From: Sphagnum compactum
Taxonomy: Eukaryota
Length of the DNA: 64,000 nucleotides
Direction of reading: 5' to 3'
Assembly (NCBI GenBank): GCA_965153455.1
Contig: OZ234493.1
Coordinates: forward strand, 15,366,213 to 15,430,212
Position 1 is the stretch's first letter. Each line of letters begins with the position of its first letter. The position numbers and the translations under genes are program-made. Of this stretch, positions 1-33,900 are shown one piece after another. A model generated the notes under the pieces. The model was not told the origin of the DNA and searched no databases. It was given only the letters and a program-made list of their open reading frames with translations.

Positions 1-89
1 CTCCTCTTCCTAGTTAGCAACAAACTTTTTCTTAATTGCCTCTTTGTCCTTAAACACATGTTTTTCAATAACCTTGCTCCTGGTGATGG
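1..89 (-). mobile_element. Retroelement gag-pol remnant, downstream part (interrupted by the organellar insert)
   Basis: Minus strand reads ITRSKVIEKHVFKDKEAIKKKFVAN*EEE, a plausible direct continuation of ...VHMVDVNMAI that ends at 2206. Confidence 0.7.
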
Positions 90-109
90 TATAACCTTTA
101 ACGGCGAGG

Positions 110-254
110 TTCAAACGAGGAAGGGCTTATGGTGGATACCTAGGCACCCAGAGACAAGGAAGGGCGTAGCAAGCGACGAAATGCTTCGGGGAGCTGAAAA
201 TAAACATAGATCCGGAGATTCCCGAATGGGTTAACCTTTTGAACTGTTGCCGAA
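110..254 (+). pseudogene. rrn23: Plastid 23S rRNA 5' fragment (NUPT)
   Basis: ttcaaacgagg...ggtggatacctaggcacccagagac...gatccggagattcccgaat matches the 5' end of plastid 23S rRNA; truncated. Confidence 0.92.
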
Positions 255-503
255 AGACTCATTTGTTGCAAATTAGTTTCAAGTTTTCCATTCTTCGATC
301 CTTGAATAAGCAAAACTAAAATACGACGAGCGTCTTTACTTAGGGGTTCCCACGGTGGGGGTAAATTTTTACGTCCAAATTCTCGCCATTGATCGGAAAT
401 CCAAAATTTGAGTTTATTATCTCCCTTCGATAAATGTAATAATTTCCTATTCTTTTTCAGTTCATAAATCTCCTCCGTCAAAAGCCAAGGTGATTTCGAC
501 TCT
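255..503 (-). pseudogene. Probable plastid ycf1 internal fragment (NUPT)
   Basis: AT-rich open frame [18 protein letters not shown]...WISDQWREFGRKNLPPPWEPLSKDARRILVLL among plastid fragments; ycf1 identity is from recall and tentative. Confidence 0.5.
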
Positions 504-587
504 GACTACGAGAAAACCACCGATCCACATGTGATGTGTAAATAGAGAGAGTTGGGTACCATAATCAGTAGCTAGATATGGATAAGG
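504..587 (-). pseudogene. psaA: Plastid psaA fragment (NUPT)
   Basis: Minus-strand translation [28 protein letters not shown] is a diagnostic PsaA segment; not in the ORF track. Confidence 0.93.
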
Positions 588-797
588 CAACAATGTGGTT
601 AGAGCTCGGGAACATAAAAAAATCAGCTTGCATAGTCCTTTATGGCTTCAATGGGGAACAAATTTGCGAGTAACTACTTCGAGAAATCGTGAAAAGCCCA
701 TTGAGGTTCAATACGACCCTTTAGGCACTTCTTCTCAAATTTATGAACATTATCAACTTGGAAGAAATAAAGAAGAATTTTTTTTTGGTATTTATGT
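588..797 (+). pseudogene. rpoC1: Plastid rpoC1 3' fragment (NUPT)
   Basis: [13 protein letters not shown]...REKPIEVQYDPLGTSSQIYEHY matches the RpoC1 C-terminal region. Confidence 0.88.
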
Positions 798-856
798 TTG
801 AACCCGCAACTTCCGTCTTGACAGGGCAGTACTCTAACCGATTGAACTACAATCCC
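796..856 (-). pseudogene. trnD: Plastid trnD-GUC, 3'-truncated (NUPT)
   Basis: Reverse complement gggattgtagttcaatcggttagagtactgccctGTCaagacggaagttgcgggttcaaac; 3' acceptor strand is missing. Confidence 0.9.
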
Positions 857-1053
857 ATTAAATATGAATTTATTATGTCAATCCATAAGCCTTTGTGTCA
901 AATGAATTCTGGAATGTAGAATAAAAAATAATAAATATTTTTTATTTTTTGCGGGATTTCCCATACCTCCCCCAGGAAGGTCGAGAAATACCAATAATAT
1001 TAAGAAAAAATAAAATAAAATTTAACCAATTTTTAGTTTGGTAAAACCGAAAT

Positions 1054-1131
1054 TGGGTTGAGCTGGATTTGAACCAGCGTAGGCATTACCAGCGGATTTA
1101 CAGTCCGTCCCCATTAACCACTCGAGCATCG
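1054..1131 (-). pseudogene. trnY: Plastid trnY-GUA, 5' end clipped (NUPT); contiguous with trnD via the native spacer
   Basis: Reverse complement cgatgctcgagtggttaatggggacggactGTAaatccgctgg...ggttcaaatccagctcaaccca; order matches the plastid trnE-trnY-trnD cluster. Confidence 0.9.
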
Positions 1132-1481
1132 CCTAATAAGTAAGCCCCACAACCTAAAGCAGCAAAAAAAATAAAAATTTGCTACAAAATCCGGCTAACG
1201 GGGGTATTCCTGCATATGAAAACATAGTAATAGACAAGGTAATAGCTAAAATAGGATTGGTTTTGGCTAAAGCACCTAAATCTGCTATATATTTGAAACG
1301 GTTTTGACGTAATGCTAAAACTATGGCAAATACATTGATGGTCATTAATACATAAATAAAGACACCAATTAATAACGATTGAATTCCTTCTATGGTTCCA
1401 CATGAAAAACCGATAAAAAGATAACCTACATGTCCAATAGAACTATAAGCTAAAAGTCTCTTGACTTTGTTTTGGGCCATG
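1132..1481 (-). pseudogene. nad2: Mitochondrial nad2 internal fragment (NUMT)
   Basis: [20 protein letters not shown]...GIPPLAGFCSKF, then a frameshift in an A/T run before AALGCGAYLL. Confidence 0.93.
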
Positions 1482-1482
1482 C

Positions 1483-1683
1483 CTGGAGCTCTTTTTCTAT
1501 TGTTTCTCTCCGCCATTTTTCTAATCGCGGGTTGGTTACATCTACAACCTAAATGGAAACCAAGTATTTCATGGTTCAAAAATGCTGAATCTCGTCTCAA
1601 TCATCATTTGTTAGGACTTTTTGGAGTTAGTTCCCTAGCTTGGACGGGACATTTAGTCCATGTGGCTATCCCCGAATCAAGAG
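1483..1683 (+). pseudogene. psaB: Plastid psaB fragment (NUPT)
   Basis: [65 protein letters not shown]. Confidence 0.95.
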
Positions 1684-1684
1684 A

Positions 1685-2106
1685 ATGACTGACACAAGAT
1701 TCGACTTGTAAAATATTATGGAGGTCTAGTCAGCACCATGCCAATGTTCTCTACTATTTTCTTATTTTTTACTTTAGCCAATATGAGTTTACCTGGTACT
1801 AGCAGCTTTATTGGGGAATTTCTTATTTTAGTAGGAGCTCTCCAAAGAAATAGCTTAGTGGCCACATTAGCAGCACTTGGGATGATTTTAGGTGCAGCTT
1901 ATTCTCTTTGGCTATATAATCGTGTGATTTTTGGGAATTTCAAACATAAATTCCTCCAAAAATTTTCCGATTTAAATAGAAGAGAAGTTCTAATATTTTT
2001 ACCTTTTGTTGTCGGAATTATTTGGATGGGTGTTTACCTTGAAGTGTTCCTAGAGTGTATGCATACTTCCATAGGTAACTTAGTGCAACATGGAAAATTT
2101 GATTAA
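1685..2106 (+). pseudogene. nad4: Mitochondrial nad4 3' fragment with stop codon (NUMT)
   Basis: RLVKYYGGLVSTMPMFSTIFLFFTLANMSLPGTSSFIGEFL...GNLVQHGKFD*; premature TGA where CGA is expected near the start. Confidence 0.95.
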
Positions 2107-2132
2107 AAAACATAGAAAAGAGGTTCGAAGAA

Positions 2133-2209
2133 ATGTTTGAACATGATTTTTTAGCGCCTTTCCCAAAGATCTTTCTTATTAATGCAACCATCATTTTGCT
2201 TATCTATGG
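2133..2209 (+). pseudogene. nad2: Mitochondrial nad2 5' fragment following the 26-nt nad4-nad2 spacer (NUMT)
   Basis: ATG at 2133 reads MFEHDFLAPFPKIFLINATIILLIYG; spacer 2107-2132 is 26 nt. Confidence 0.88.
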
Positions 2210-4070
2210 CCATATTCACATCCACCATATGGACCAAAGGATTTGAAACCTTGGGTTCTACCACAACTTGTTTTTTTTTTGGCTTCACTCCTTTGTTCTT
2301 AAACATATTTTGCATATCATTATAGTTAGGACAATCTATGATCTTATGTCCAGTGTCACCACAAATATGAAAAGAATACCTCACAGGCCTCTGTACTTTA
2401 ATCTATTAAGTAGTAACCTCAAAGATTACAAGAATAAGTCCTCCTTTCTTTTGACTCTACATGTTTCAACATTATGATTTTTCCTATGACAATTTGTACA
2501 ATACATTCTTGTTTTCTCTGAGACTGTTTAAAGTTTTAAAGCTAATATTGTTTTACTACTCTATGGTACTCACAGATTGCTTATGGCCTCTATTTCAGAA
2601 ATTCCTTCTTCACAAACCAAAGCTGCTTCCTTATGTTACTATAGAGTTTTTCTCTTCATACTTGTTGTTGCTACACACAGATATGGTTGTAATCCAAATC
2701 TAAAAATAATAATTAAAAAACTATCTACTGTTTTATGTTGAAGATTATTAGCCAATTTCAATAATCTTTCATAATGGACTTTCATTCTTTCATTTTTCTC
2801 TCGTTTCATGTTTTTCAACTATAAGTAAATTTATTCATCATTTTGAACTTTTCTGTGCTTTTTACAAAATGCCAGTTACAATTCTGCAAAAGTTTAATAT
2901 GGGTAATTTCCCATATAATTGTTACACAGTTAGACACAATGTCTCTGAAGGTAAAATTGAATGGATTAATAATTTCTACATCATCTATTTCACTATTTGT
3001 TCTAATGGTAGCTTTAAATACTCAAACGTGAACATTTGGGTCAGAATCCTTGACATATTCAAAATAGTTAAATGGCTGACGATAAGGTCTGTCTGGTGGT
3101 AATGGTGGCCTGCTTTGATTCACCATTGGCAATCCAAAATATCTTGGAGGTCCTGATGGTCTTGGTGGATCTGAACCACTTCCTCCTAAATTTGATGGCT
3201 GACTAGCAAAAACTTTGTTCACCTTTCTGGGTATATCTTCATGCAACTCACAAATTCTATTCCCTTTGGAGTTTGTGGTATGGATTTGACACCATCAATA
3301 ATATGTATTGGTGTTGATACAAGTGGAGCTTCCATAACTATAATCATAGACTAAGACATTGCCACAAAACATAATGGCATAAATCTTACTGGTTCTATTC
3401 TAAAATTTGAAGTTCTTGCATAGGAGCTACATAAATAGGTATTACATTTGCCACAGTCTAAGCTTTCGTTTCCATTTTGTTTTCTCTCCAAATTTGTTTT
3501 TTGAATCTATTTGGAATTTTAACCTTCTCATGGTACAGATCCTCTGGCTCAATACTTCCATAATTCCCTACTCTTGCAGGTTCTAAATTCAGATTTTAGA
3601 AATGCTTAGCAAATCCTTGCTTCACATTATCTTCAATAAATGGACATTCATTGATCTCATGTCCAATTTGATGGCAATATGTGCAATGTGGAGAATTTGC
3701 TCTTGGAACTTTATTCACATTGTGAATCCTTTTACTCCAATCCTTTGGAACTCCTCTAACTATGCTTCCATTTTGTTGATTAAATTTGGGTTCACTGTAC
3801 TTCACTTTTATAGCCACATGAACACCTTCTTCTACTATTGGTTCTGCTTTCGGTAAGACTACAGTTTCTTGTCTAATTACAAGGACCGACTCAACTACTT
3901 TGGACATTCTGATACCCTGAGTTACGACTTTTTGCTCAATGACACAATGAATCGAACGTTCAAAATTCTGAGCTATTTGTTAAAACTCTTCATTCTCCTA
4001 ACCATCTCAATTATAAGGAGGTGAAGCAGATTTGTACGTTGGTACTACTTCCTCCCTGAAAGTTTTGGTT
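2206..4070 (-). mobile_element. Degenerate LTR-retrotransposon gag region
   Basis: Broken frames with zinc knuckles (CTYCHQIGHEINECP; HICGDTGHKIIDCP) and a gag-like YVKDSDPNVHV segment; many stops and frameshifts. Right boundary approximate. Confidence 0.72.
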
Positions 4071-7886: not shown

Positions 7887-10800
7887 CTACGGGTCAAGCC
7901 TCTCAAGCTTGACAGGCGGTTCCAGTAGCTCTGACAGATCTCCTGAAGAGCTGTGATGCATGAGAAATTCATCATCCTCTCCCATGACAATATCGACCTG
8001 CACCTATTTGATGTAAATGCATATCTATTACTCATCTATTAAAACCTTCATATGGCACAAAGAGAAGACAATGACTAAGGAGACCATAAAACTTTCTTAT
8101 GCCACAAAGAGAAAGCAGTGACCAAGGAAACTACACAGAAGGAACTAAATTCACTAAGCAAAAGAGACCAAATGAGGAAATATGAGGAGAGAAAAGAGAA
8201 ATGGAGAGTTTTGACTTCATGCTAAGATCTGAGATTCAATCTGCTGCTTTTGACACCTCCCTTGTTATGGCCCTCCTAGAAGTAGTAAAACAGTAATTGT
8301 ACTGCTACAACAGCAACTGGTGGCATGCAAAGCCTCTCCGATGCTGGTAAAATAGTGTATTGTACAGGAGTCCACTCACCCATTTCTCAGCAAAATGAAG
8401 ACACAGAGGAACCTGGATAGAGATTGTTCTGCTTACCTCATCATCATCTTCGAGCTTATGACCATTGCTGTGGGAAGGATGTTCTGTGGATTCATCATTT
8501 CTTGCAAAGCGACCTCGAACTCGTGGACGCTTATCTGCTAGTGATTTGCGACATGCATACTGCACAGGCCATATGTATTTCAAAACAGAAATCTGCAAAC
8601 TTCCAAGTTTCTAAACAGCAAAATCTAACCTTGAGGCCTCAAGATGGAACAATGTTCTATACACAGGATGAAAAACACAAATCTCAAGTGAGGAAAGGCC
8701 TTATCGACTCTCTGCACTGTGGTTTTTCATCAATGTCAAGTGAGGGAAGGGATTATCAAGTCTCTGCACTGTGGTCTTCACTGAAAGTATAATGGTGTAC
8801 CCCAAAACCAGTGGGATCTCACTGCAAGATGCACTGTCAATAACAGACACATTTTTTTGCAACAAGACAAGAGCCACTTGTCCAGTCTCCTACCTAAGCA
8901 AAACTTTTCTTCCCAACACACACCAAATATATTGATGAGATTGCAGAGAAGACTCCACAAAAACACTTTCAAGGAAATTCTGTGCCAGTTCCAGCCAAAT
9001 AAAAACAAACACAACAAGAATGACTGCTCTCATACTTGCAAATGTCACTCAAAAAGTAACAGACCATCGCCTTCATCATCAATGGCAGTGACTACTTGCC
9101 ATTACTCCCCACTGACTTCAACAACTCACAGCACTGGGTGCAGATTAGTATATAATAATCTGCTCAAACTCTGGGCAAAAAATTATATCGAAATCTATAT
9201 CCTGAGTTTCTGCCACATTTCTGGAAGCAACAGGAAAACTCAGTTTTGATGATGGCTAGCATTCAAGAAGCTGTTGCTAAGAAAAAGGTCAATAGTATCC
9301 TCATTCAGTTCGCAAGCTTGTGAGAGTTAGCTCCATTTCATTTCAGCCTTCCCATAAACAAGCGAGCATCTAAGCCCGAGGCACAGAGAGTCCTACAGAG
9401 AAGGCTTGGGGCACAACACTGGTGACCACTTGGATGCAATCCATCTCTTCATGTACTGTAAAAGTTTCCAGTAAGATTGTACAGAAAAATTACACCAAAA
9501 CACCTTGAAGTACAGGTGTTGTGTCAGTTTTGAGCAGTCCAAAACAAACACAACAAGAAGAGCATGGCCATACTCTTGCAAGTGTTACTTCCAAAGTGTC
9601 AGATCAAGTCACACACTGAAGCTTAACATTACATGAGTATAGATGTAAAAGATCTACCTTGATCTTCTTATTGAAGTTCCGCTGTGCTCGCTTTTGCTGA
9701 AATCTTTGCAGCAGCTGTCTGCGCTCCTCCAGTGTAAACCTGCCAACTCTCTTGGTGTCAATTCCATACACGGGGGACAAATTCCCCCCTCCAACCTGCA
9801 TTGCTGTTGACCTCTGTACACAATCTCGCAACCAAATGACCATGAAAATTAGTAAGGACTCACCTTTCCTTTTCTTCAAAAGGGATTTCTGAATAAATTT
9901 AGTCTCTCTTGGTTCCATACGTCTTTCAAGCGAACCTGATAACTTACGTGCTGTTCATCCAAAAACTACAACCATTGCAAAGAGAGAAAGGATTTCACCT
10001 GAAGGTCTCCTGTACTTTGAGCACGGCGCATAGATGGTGCTGCCATGAGAGCTGCCCTAGCCATGTCTTGCAAATCTGACTGCTGACATTGCAATTCAGA
10101 CACTGGACTTGTGAGCTGCCCAGTAAATTCAGGGTGTGTTAAGCTCCCTGGGCTGAATGAAGATTCACTCTGTGGTGAGAGTGGGTGCATTGGAGGTCGA
10201 TCCTGCCCCAAAGTGTGGCTACTTTGGCTTCGCAACAGTGATGATCGACTGTTGGATCCAGGTTCCAGCTGCAAATTCAACCCATATCCATCTGCCTATC
10301 AGTCCGGAATGAAGGGAAAAAGAAGACCTGATGCATGTCAAAGGCCTCATAACATCCTGGTGCTGCATGCACAAATCTTACACAAATTCTGTGATTGTAT
10401 ACATTCACAGATTCCAAGATCACAGCAAAACTATGAGGGCAACATGAGGAATGACACCCAAAATCATGATGTCTATGGAAGACCAAGAAACAAACTTACC
10501 CCAAAGTGATAATCAACAATATCTAACTCTTCTGTTTGAAGCAAATTGTCCAGTTGCTGTTGAATGGGGACAATGACATTCTGCTCTCCCAAATGCATCA
10601 CATCCCCAGAATCTTTGTAATCTACACTCAATGCAGAAGATGATGTGTCAATTTGCAAATGTGCCCATGGCATCCCATCAATCCCTCCAATGGGTGCGCT
10701 TGGCATATCTTGACATGATGAAGAATAATACTGGGACAATTCTTCATTCCCATTTGGTTGTGGTTGTGCTGGGGGTGGCACCATAGGGGAGGAGGGGAGA

Positions 10801-30967: not shown

Positions 30968-33900
30968 TAGTCTAGGTGTAGATGCTAGGTATTTGGTTAG
31001 TTTGTACCAACTTTTGATTTTGTTTTGTCATCTTTCGTATGGGGCATTGTTGGGTACTAAAAATCATTGATTTTGTTAGGGAATATGTTTATCAGTGAAA
31101 CATGCCAAGAAAAGGTCATGATAGCCAAATGAAAGGGGGTCCGAAGTATTCTGATTTGATTGAATGCCAATTAATTAAGTAATGTAATAATAGTCGATTT
31201 TAGTACATATATAGAATTTAACGGTCTAAATAATGTAAACATGGAAATGATGTGTAGGTTACACATTTCCTACCAACTTTGTGATATTGATTTTGATGGG
31301 CAATGTATGTGTTGCAATAGCCCTTGTTTTTGGTATCAAAGTCGATTTTTCTAAAAGTCTAAAATGGTTTATTAAGGTTGTGGATAATGCTAGGTATTGA
31401 TGGTGTAGGTGAAGAGGCATGCCAATGGCACCACTATGGACCAAGGCAAAAGGGATAAATTGAGAAAAACTCAACATAGAAATGAAATATTGGCCATTAG
31501 GTTCAAATCTAGCTAAGAACAAGAGATGGAACAAGAAGCTAGACCACTGTTGCCCAACATCGGCGCATATATTATTTATCCTTAGTTTTTATCCAATCAG
31601 TTGAATAAATCGAAATATTTGAAAAAATTGAATTAATACCAAGAATAGGATATTTGTGATTACCTGTTGCCGTAGTTTCACCTTCTCACTTAGTAAGGTT
31701 TTTTTTCCTAGGAATAGAAATGTTTTTTGTTGTTGGTGACAAAGTGGTTAGAATTGAACATTCAGGAGTTAAATCGAAGGCTTTAATGTGGAGATTAGGA
31801 AAAAATGTTAATGGATAGTGGTTATTGAATTTTGAACATGAGGAAAAGTTTAAAAATCTAGTATGAATCACATCAATTGTCAACCAAATCGTACACTATG
31901 ATCAATGATGACCCCAACCAAGAATTGGAATTATAATGAAGATGATTATTGTTGGATATCATGATGAATGGCAACAATCAAGCCATCGGGAAGTAGCTTT
32001 GTTTCAAATAACGTCCCTGAACCTTCTTTGTTCAGTTTTGAAATCCCTAATCTTAAGAATGGAAACCCTGTTCACAAATTAGGAGATATTTGGATATTGG
32101 GATTGATAGATACCAAACAACATTATGTTAGGTTGTATATGTTGGGGATGGAATACATGTTTAGGTCAGAAGATAGGTTTATCAGGGTGAACATTCTGGG
32201 ACATTGATTTTGCTATGGGTGTTGACCAAGAAGGAACATCTTTTGATTTGTATATGCAATAGGTTTAAAAGAAATAACAGATCTAGAAGATATTTCATGA
32301 TGACAAGCCCCAAGGTTATGGATGAACTTTTCTAGGGTAAGGAATTCAAAGATAATCATGATTGGGTGGAAAAGTTAGAAATGGCGACAAAGGTAAAAGG
32401 AATTAATGAACAAAAGTTCTTCAAGATTGGTAGACTGAATCTAAGAGGGAAAGCCAAGGAATGGTTCAAAAAAATGGATGGTGCTCCAACAAATTGGGAT
32501 GCTAGGAAAGCTGCCATGCTTTCAAAATATGGAATAGTAGACAAGGAAAACGTCAAGGTCAAACTAGAACTTGAATCAAACAAGAACGAAAACAAAGGGT
32601 TCAAGCTTACCATGATAGGATGGAGAAGCTTTTTACAAGGGATAAATTGGAGGATGCAGAACAGAAAAAAATAAATTCTAAGCTTCATCCTGAAATCAAG
32701 AAATTGTGTGTTATGCGAAATTATGCGAATATGGATGAATTGTTTGGTGCAACTTTAGAAATTGAAAAGGTGTTGATTGAATTGGGAGAAACTTTGTTTG
32801 AATTACTAAAAGACAAACATGAAACAGTTGCAACATTTGATGTTGTTGTTGAGAAACAAGTTAGTGTGTTGAATGAATCACTCATTAATTTCTTCGGACC
32901 AAGAATTACACTAGGTCATGGAATAGGGTGATTTGGAGCCAACACCACTTTAGTATGCCATATATGTAGTTTGGTTGATCATGTGGCTACTATTTGTCCA
33001 AGAATTGGGGACCTAAAACGTAAATGCGGTAAATGTGGTCTTCCACATAGGACGAAGAATTGTGGTTTAAGATGTGGTTCTACAACGGTATGGGCCATAC
33101 AATAGTGTTGGAAGGACACCAAACCAAATTCTGCTGCAAATAATTGCTTAGAGGTACTTGTTAATGATGAAGCAGCTACATTAGAACAGTTGAAAAGTCT
33201 TTGTGGAACAAAACATGATGTTTTCTTTGGCGTCAGGATACCAAGAAGGAAAATGCTGGTATAAATGAAAATGCCAAAGGTGGAAAAAACAAAGGAAATA
33301 ACCATCTAACAATTGGTGCAATGAGGGAAGGATCAACATGATCCAAAATTCTAACCCATTTCATTGAGGGTAAAATTTCATTGTCTTCGATGGAGACAAT
33401 CTTGTCAATTCTTGGAAAATTTGAATATTTAGAAAGTCTAATGAAGCTTGCTCAAAAAAAGAAAGATGATAGTTTGAAAATAACTAATTTGTGAAACCAC
33501 AAAAGATACTAGCAATCTGACGGATTTGTATCAGCAAAAGTCATTGGAACAAAACCCTACACCTTTTGGTAGAAATTAGTAACCATTTGGTTGAAGGATT
33601 GGTTGGCACCAATGCATCCACGTCTATTATGGCAACAAGAGTTGTTCGTGAACTAGGTATAATGCATTTAATCACAAGATCTAAATCATACAAAACAACT
33701 TCCCACTTGGTGATACAAGTGGTTGGGAGGATTAATGAAATTGTCGTGAAGGTTAGAGAGATTCAATGTCTCTTGACCTTCATGATCATAGACACTAACA
33801 ATTATGACCTATTACTTGGATTGGATTTCCTAATTAAAATTGGGGCAATTGGGGATGTGGTAAAGGGAACTATCCAAGTCAGCTAAGGTCCTGGAAACAA

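Follow-up and report, generated by a model that had tools for sequence, protein, structure and literature searches.

A probable mosaic insertion of plastid and mitochondrial DNA in a gag-like nuclear repeat of Sphagnum compactum

Nuclear insertions of plastid DNA (NUPTs) and of mitochondrial DNA (NUMTs) have been sorted into three patterns, the mosaic pattern standing beside the collinear and the rearranged (PMC7037861, citing Leister 2005). Insertions that combine fragments of both organelles, the numins of Portugez, Martin and Hazkani-Covo 2018 (PMC6215612), numbered 1,782 in nine angiosperms and made up 2-10% of the organelle insertions there. That survey reported blunt or microhomology signatures at 35% of the dual-origin junctions, and its authors argued that fragments are concatenated either before a break captures them or while it does so. 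In Oryza, most insertions above 1 kb are complex, the largest numbers of fragments are found in numins, and complex insertions arise in single events (PMC12129026). Here we describe a block of organelle fragments near the start of a 64,000-nucleotide stretch of DNA from the peat moss Sphagnum compactum (contig OZ234493.1, positions 15,366,213 to 15,430,212, hereafter the window). [quoted passage not shown]

The block resembles the angiosperm numins in having adjacent plastid and mitochondrial fragments in mixed orientation, and in having inner junctions that are blunt or show a few bases of microhomology, an anatomy that the numin survey reads as concatenation at a double-strand break (PMC6215612). 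That survey covers nine angiosperms and could not analyze terminal junctions, whereas the present block is from a moss and its target is a repeat whose many intact paralogues allow both terminal junctions, and the pre-insertion sequence, to be recovered. It likewise resembles the nuclear organelle DNA insertions and numins of Oryza, in which most insertions above 1 kb are complex and in which the junctions are variously marked by microhomology, blunt ends, short fillers or short target duplications (PMC12129026). The Oryza insertions were dated by presence or absence across accessions, while the Sphagnum block is older (about 2% diverged) and lies within a repeat. With respect to the mosaic NUPT/NUMT pattern as reviewed (PMC7037861), the block is no different in kind. 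The mechanism, the class and the frequency of such insertions are thus already in print, and the view of a first-pass annotation of this DNA that so many tiny pieces from both organelles are unusual is not supported, since numins are common in angiosperms and, in Oryza, are the insertions with the most fragments (PMC6215612, PMC12129026). Mitochondrial insertions of plastid DNA (MTPTs) also place plastid and mitochondrial sequence side by side, but these sit in the mitogenome at mitochondrial depth, whereas the flanks of this block are a nuclear repeat and the mitochondrial reference lacks its junctions at the four borders of the mitochondrial pieces.

The block extends from window position 85/90 to 2205/2209 and consists of eight organelle pieces of 83-525 bp, here called P1 to P8, laid end to end in mixed orientation (Table 1). 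The first-pass annotation had proposed eight pieces in this order and orientation between positions 90 and 2209. Profile, BLAST and protein searches, together with a mitochondrial metagenome contig (L022) and the contigs of sequencing runs, recover every one of them, and the proposed limits are off by no more than the 4-5 letters that, at either end, could belong to both sides. Its count of six plastid and two mitochondrial pieces, alternating toward the right end, is borne out as well, the two origins alternating from P5 to P8. The closest protein matches of the organelle pieces are Sphagnum organelle proteins, and the E-values of the piece matches rule out chance.

Of the 24 public runs considered, 19 share words with window positions 1-3000; seven runs of one coded organism contain 0.44-0.56 of the words, and related coded organisms and three moss metagenome runs contain 0.33-0.37. 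Four runs were used for detailed comparison, all in the form of short contigs, which can drop rare variants. Piece borders were set from the high-depth organelle contigs of these four runs and their loose ends, and from L022, a 20-kb locus of a 141-kb mitochondrial record; those on the plastid side were taken from contig ends and could be wrong by 1-2 letters. Differences were counted against the organelle contigs of the same coded organism or, for the mitochondrial pieces, against L022.

Table 1. Organelle pieces of the block and the flanking repeat, in window coordinates; the last column gives differences from organelle sequence.
Feature	Position	Strand	Identity	Basis	Differences
Left flank	1-89	-	Downstream part of gag-like open reading frame (ORF), running off the window start	ORF 10-126, paralogues, joining contigs	
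P1	85-254	+	5' end of plastid 23S rRNA (rrn23) and short upstream spacer	Rfam 5.8S model, BLAST, loose ends before 85 and behind 254	at least 3 among rows listed
P2	250-499	-	Plastid ycf1 (TIC214), residues 407-489	Protein match, loose ends before 250 and behind 499	at least 2 among rows listed
P3	505-587	-	Plastid psaA fragment, model positions ~363-404 of 752	Profile match, loose ends before 505 and behind 587	at least 0 among rows listed
P4	590-800	+	Plastid rpoC1, residues 580-649 of 685	Protein match; two contig records span 590-800 with 10 other letters	10 of 211, 0 gaps (4.7%)
P5	800-1131	-	3'-truncated trnD (800-856), AT-rich spacer, trnY-GUA (1054-1131)	tRNA model matches; one contig record spans 800-1131	8 of 332, 3 gaps
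P6	1133-1481	-	Mitochondrial nad2 exon 2 fragment, NuoN model positions 291-399	NuoN model, L022 12690-12341, two contig records	5-6 of 349, 1 gap
P7	1483-1683	+	Plastid psaB fragment, model positions 136-202 of 734	psaB E 9.6e-36; one contig record spans 1483-1683	2 of 201, 0 gaps
P8	1685-2209	+	Mitochondrial nad4 3' end, 26-nt spacer, nad2 exon 1 start	NuoM E 3e-44; L022 9993-10517	7 of 525, 0 gaps
Right flank	2206-3294	-	Upstream part of gag-like ORF, frameshifted further upstream	ORFs, 32 paralogous proteins	

The identities of the individual pieces rest on several kinds of match. P1 fits the Rfam model for 5.8S rRNA, the homologue of the 23S 5' end (E 1.3e-05), and in BLAST it matches features annotated as 23S ribosomal RNA (80.2% over query positions 27-152). 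P2 is identical to a Sphagnum protein at 80 of 83 residues and matches a Sphagnum TIC214 cluster at 96% (E 6.3e-44). The two photosystem pieces are separated by their profile scores: P3 matches PsaA_PsaB (E 1.6e-11) and scores 51.1 bits with the NCBIfam psaA model against 23.5 with psaB, while P7 scores 123.2 bits with psaB against 60.2 with psaA. P4 shares 63 and 61 of 70 residues with two Sphagnum proteins (87-90%), and its match to the RNA polymerase gamma subunit model is weak (E 0.0081). In P5, a tRNA model match at 1054-1133 (30.9 bits) has a GUA anticodon loop, the junction replacing the first letters of the trnY acceptor stem, and a truncated match at 786-856 (19.2 bits, below threshold) has a GUC anticodon that was read from the sequence by eye; ARAGORN called neither tRNA.

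P6 matches the NuoN model (E 4.7e-39) and is 98.3% identical to L022, with 5 mismatches and 1 gap in 350 positions; it carries one frameshifting indel within an A run. P8 comprises the last 137 codons of nad4, with the stop at 2104-2106, and the first 25 codons of nad2 beginning with an ATG at 2133, and 518 of its 525 letters match L022. The start of nad2 in P8 agrees with L022 10441-10599, which corresponds to NuoN positions 2-46. Both pieces are mitochondrial nad sequence and not plastid ndh sequence, as they score 120.9 and 151.6 bits with NuoN/NuoM-type models against 79.9 and 56.6 with NAD(P)H-quinone oxidoreductase models, and the P4 and P7 contigs are about three times as deep as those matching these two pieces.

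Some related sequences were encountered along the way. Two records filed as E. coli plasmids (NZ_AP027616.1 and NZ_AP027617.1, 2.9 and 1.9 kb) are 23S rRNA, 72-80% identical to the plastid-type 5' end, and may be rRNA fragments of another organism. Five "hypothetical proteins" of 163-297 amino acids from JGI, NCBI and ENA (P0002, P0003, P0005, P0006 and P0064) are decayed collinear copies of the ycf1 region, 79-94% identical; these probably represent further, simple insertions of plastid DNA that were taken for genes in the annotation of related genomes, and none has the junction of the block. In three runs there are contigs at depth 6-42 that diverge from P8 by about 10%; some of them run on collinearly into mitochondrial sequence beyond 1685-2209, and they resemble older, separate nuclear copies of the nad4-nad2 region.

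All seven inner junctions carry signatures of end joining, with 0-5 unassigned or 1-5 shared letters, and none has nuclear sequence between its two pieces. Letters that fit both sides are found at P1-P2 (five, 250-254) and P4-P5 (one, position 800). Unassigned letters number five at P2-P3 (500-504), two at P3-P4 (588-589), and one each at P5-P6, P6-P7 and P7-P8. Judging by loose-end consensus sequences read by eye, three of the five letters at 500-504 agree with the continuing psaA sequence and one of the two at 588-589 agrees with the rpoC1 sequence ahead of 590, thus these two junctions may be blunt ends blurred by later substitutions. At every piece border the organelle contigs part from the block and run on into other sequence.

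The block splits a minus-strand gag-like ORF of a multi-copy repeat, and its two flanks belong to the same ORF in the same frame. On the left, ORF 10-126 (minus strand) reads ...ITRSKVIEKHVFKDKEAIKKKFVAN, a stretch that paralogous proteins have immediately after ...VDVNMA. Six of the seven paralogues fetched read ...VDVNMxIT... through the insertion point, and the seventh stops before reaching it. A protein search with the right flank returned 32 relatives, 67-91% identical. Each flank position is covered by 8-30 contigs, which also marks the flank as a repeat, and uninterrupted copies are present in all four runs as contigs joining position 85 directly to 2206, with summed depths of 21-143. 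No second copy of the flanks or of the pieces was found by BLAST of positions 1-3000 against the 64-kb window, and BLAST of the whole window against L001 and L022 returned P6 and P8 only. The right flank contains a CCHC zinc knuckle at about 2320-2365 (zf-CCHC E 0.022, below the Pfam cut-off), and a Pfam search of the gag flank at E up to 1 found nothing beyond this sub-threshold match; the sequence suggests that the repeat might represent the gag region of an LTR retrotransposon, whose pol region would then be situated to the left of position 1. A second CCHC-type motif is present in a 127-residue ORF upstream of the gag-like ORF (3599-3979, minus strand), for which Pfam gave nothing significant.

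At the junction of repeat and P1, five letters (GATGG) fit both sides, the plastid match beginning at 85 and the repeat match ending at 89. At the junction of P8 and repeat, four letters (ATGG) do so, the mitochondrial match ending at 2209 and the repeat match beginning at 2206. The letters ATGG are therefore present at both ends of the insert, and they are present once in the paralogues. The target ORF picks up at the next codon after the insert. Given the contigs that join 85 to 2206, the uninterrupted paralogues and the shared frame of the two flanks, the insert sits cleanly between two codons and no letters of the target were lost. A staggered break that left a 4-letter target duplication could account for the doubled ATGG, as could microhomology at one end or the other or at the two together, or a combination of duplication and microhomology.

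Read depth places the flank apart from the organelle sequences. In run X3, the contigs matching P4 and P7 have depths of about 2,900-3,000 and those matching P6 and P8 about 1,000, while the contig that matches the flank exactly has a depth of 30.3. Run X5 gives the same ranking, at 6.6 for the exact flank contig and 210-570 for the organelle contigs. This exact right-flank contig covers 2677-3000 in both runs, which come from two studies. A nuclear locus is indicated by this depth, by the position of both flanks in one gag-like repeat ORF, and by nuclear-type ORFs elsewhere in the window.

The pieces have decayed. Those that can be measured differ from organelle sequence by 1.0-4.7%, or about 2% overall, and 17 of the 24 differences listed are an organelle C or G replaced by T or A in the window. 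P6 is frameshifted, the tRNAs escape ARAGORN, and the coding pieces are all internal fragments. Divergence at this level and with this spectrum argues that the pieces are old nuclear residents and not misassembled organelle reads. Combined with the clean return to the repeat ORF it makes a strong case against misassembly, as true organelle reads would be identical to the organelle sequence.

Several observations weigh against a genuine insertion, or at least against one made at a single stroke. Direct read support is weak. Among the short contig records listed, none spans an inner junction or the whole block, and in X3 contigs carrying the window's own variant letter were found at only 8 of 19 listed positions, in X5 at only 3 of 19, although coverage holes and missing variant letters in such contigs count neither for nor against. 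The mitochondrial comparison spans 20 kb of the 141-kb record, and the plastid borders and differences rest on the listed contig records of the runs and not on a plastome of the species. Divergence is uneven over P4 to P8 (chi-square p = 0.026), driven by rpoC1 at 4.7%.

The first of these points would suit an assembly chimera, in which organelle reads or unrelated loci were wrongly stitched together, and organelle DNA is indeed 30-100 times deeper than nuclear DNA in these libraries. A chimera does not, however, account for pieces that are each, where measurable, 1-5% off the organelle sequence with a nuclear-type C-to-T bias, or for a sequence that after 2.1 kb rejoins the very next codon of the same repeat ORF, as a misjoin would not be expected to do. 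Pieces of 83-525 bp are also far below long-read length, and some contigs at nuclear depth carry the variant letters of the window in two separate studies (positions 204 and 1628). We therefore regard a chimera as very unlikely.

The unevenness of divergence bears on a different alternative, that of serial build-up, in which separate organelle insertions, or larger plastid and mitochondrial inserts later rearranged or trimmed, accumulated at one fragile site. The first-pass annotation had named a strong difference in divergence between pieces as a mark of such serial insertion. What we find is a weak heterogeneity, and it falls to p = 0.28 when a run of four adjacent differences at 778-781 is counted once. 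At those positions the window reads TTTT where the plastid contigs and Sphagnum rpoC1 proteins imply AAAA, within an A/T run, and one clustered event is likely; this region of rpoC1 is also variable among the Sphagnum proteins. Insertions near existing ones are on record in Oryza, as a rare class (10 of 828; PMC12129026), but a comparison in rice found no recurrent mosaic insertions (PMC6215612). Serial build-up would further need seven events, each exactly at the end of the previous piece, with 0-5 letters between pieces and no nuclear filler, and we think it quite improbable.

Another possibility is that the plastid pieces had joined mitochondrial DNA at an earlier time, within the mitogenome, and that one mitochondrial fragment was then transferred. 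The depth of the trnD-trnY contig in run X5 (207) would fit this, being near that of the mitochondrial contigs (214-215). Against this, L022 and the runs' own mitochondrial contigs part from the window sequence at each of the four ends of P6 and P8, so that this objection to direct nuclear insertion, foreseen by the first-pass annotation, comes out negative at those borders. Moreover, P6 and P8 are themselves rearranged relative to L022, trnD-trnY contigs are plastid-like in depth in X3 and X9, and bryophyte mitogenomes are described as being without detectable plastid DNA (preprint 10.1101/2022.12.23.521604). Plastid contigs run into other sequence at every plastid border. We consider pre-fusion in the mitogenome the least probable of the alternatives weighed here. 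With regard to the trnD-trnY contig of X5, whose depth is also unlike that of rpoC1 in the same run (568), a library bias against the very AT-rich spacer is possible.

A nuclear mosaic insertion thus being the favored reading, the number of events and the manner of joining can be considered. The first-pass annotation proposed that the pieces were ligated in one event, and the anatomy fits: the junctions are tight, there is no filler, the ORF resumes after the insert, and divergence is similar among pieces. From these features we infer a single end-joining event, which we regard as probable. The annotation further suggested organelle degradation as one conceivable occasion for it. The process would have begun with a double-strand break in a retrotransposon-like nuclear repeat, within its gag-like ORF. 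Six plastid and two mitochondrial fragments would then have been stitched together, before or during nuclear capture and in one repair event, by non-homologous or microhomology-assisted end joining. As nuclear DNA without a function, the block would subsequently have decayed, with C-to-T and G-to-A changes predominating, although the cause of this spectrum is likewise a matter of interpretation. The block has no function of its own, and its arrival would have inactivated an already selfish element.

The geometry of the sources adds a further consideration. The sources of P8 and P6 in L022 (9993-10517 and 12341-12690) lie 1,823 bp apart on the same mitochondrial strand, yet in the window the two pieces have opposite orientations; two random pieces would lie this close with a chance of about 0.04. 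In plastid operons psaA and psaB are adjacent, and with that arrangement the model positions of P3 and P7 would place their sources about 1.5 kb apart. By gene order, rpoC1 and trnD-trnY would be about 10 kb apart, as would rrn23 and ycf1, and both members of each source pair are presumably inverted relative to each other. It is tempting to see in the eight pieces four pairs, each from one small source neighborhood, in place of a random shredded sample, but we hold this idea only tentatively and think it more doubtful than not. If it were true, it would suggest that four multi-kb organelle molecules were shattered locally, or were copied with strand switching, in a single repair event. The block would then preserve, to the base, a signature of the chromothripsis-like or template-switching kind, together with its two terminal junctions and the sequence of the site before insertion. 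The close source sites fit the published excess of same-organelle neighbors in complex insertions (PMC6215612).

Close source sites are also what might be expected if the block had been built by replication, through fork stalling and template switching or microhomology-mediated break-induced replication, with repair synthesis at the broken repeat hopping between nearby templates and copying short stretches of a few organelle DNA molecules that were present in the nucleus, in place of a ligation of free fragments. The proximity and opposite orientation of the two mitochondrial pieces and the presumed proximity of the psaA and psaB pieces favor this, as do the ATGG at both insert ends and the one to five letters that fit both sides at four of the nine junctions. 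In Oryza, 27% of insertions have been put down to such mechanisms (PMC12129026). The other five junctions, however, show unassigned letters or blunt ends and not microhomology, and the block has neither a target duplication above 20 bp nor a deletion above 10 bp, the criteria used in the Oryza work (PMC12129026). Shattering of a few multi-kb fragments followed by ligation explains close source sites equally well, and the source geometry is compatible with template switching as well as with the shattering of a small number of longer molecules. Taking the junctions into account, we judge replication-based construction unlikely and prefer end joining of fragments in one event.

The remainder of the window was inspected for other organelle DNA and for its gene content. 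Pfam searches of 84 ORFs of at least 80 amino acids across the window revealed no other organelle fragments, and Rfam at the gathering threshold together with ARAGORN, both applied to the whole window, yielded only the trnY remnant, with no tRNA called by ARAGORN in the block. ORFs at 8308-8610 and 9607-9954, both on the minus strand, contain halves of a CCT motif (E 2.2e-10 and 2.1e-4) and are likely exons of a nuclear CCT-domain gene of the CONSTANS-like or pseudo-response-regulator type. A plus-strand ORF at 33521-33883 with a domain of the aspartyl protease type (Asp_protease E 1.4e-11, gag-asp_proteas E 4.9e-09) belongs either to a DDI1-like gene or to another retroelement; the surrounding 30-38 kb have a strongly positive GC skew.

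The available passages of the review of NUPTs and NUMTs contain no mention of moss, bryophyte, Sphagnum or Physcomitrella (PMC7037861). In open-access text we found counts of NUPTs and NUMTs for Physcomitrella and no description of a mosaic insertion in a moss, and a search of such text for Sphagnum together with NUPT brought up nothing but passing mentions and unrelated "nuptial" papers. As far as that literature goes, no numin may have been described from a bryophyte before this one. The block shows in a moss the kind of mosaic transfer from organelle to nucleus that has been catalogued in flowering plants, and since its target is a repeat with intact paralogues both outer junctions can be seen unusually clearly, making it a useful worked example. 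If its presence or absence varies among peat-moss species, the block could serve as a rare genomic marker.

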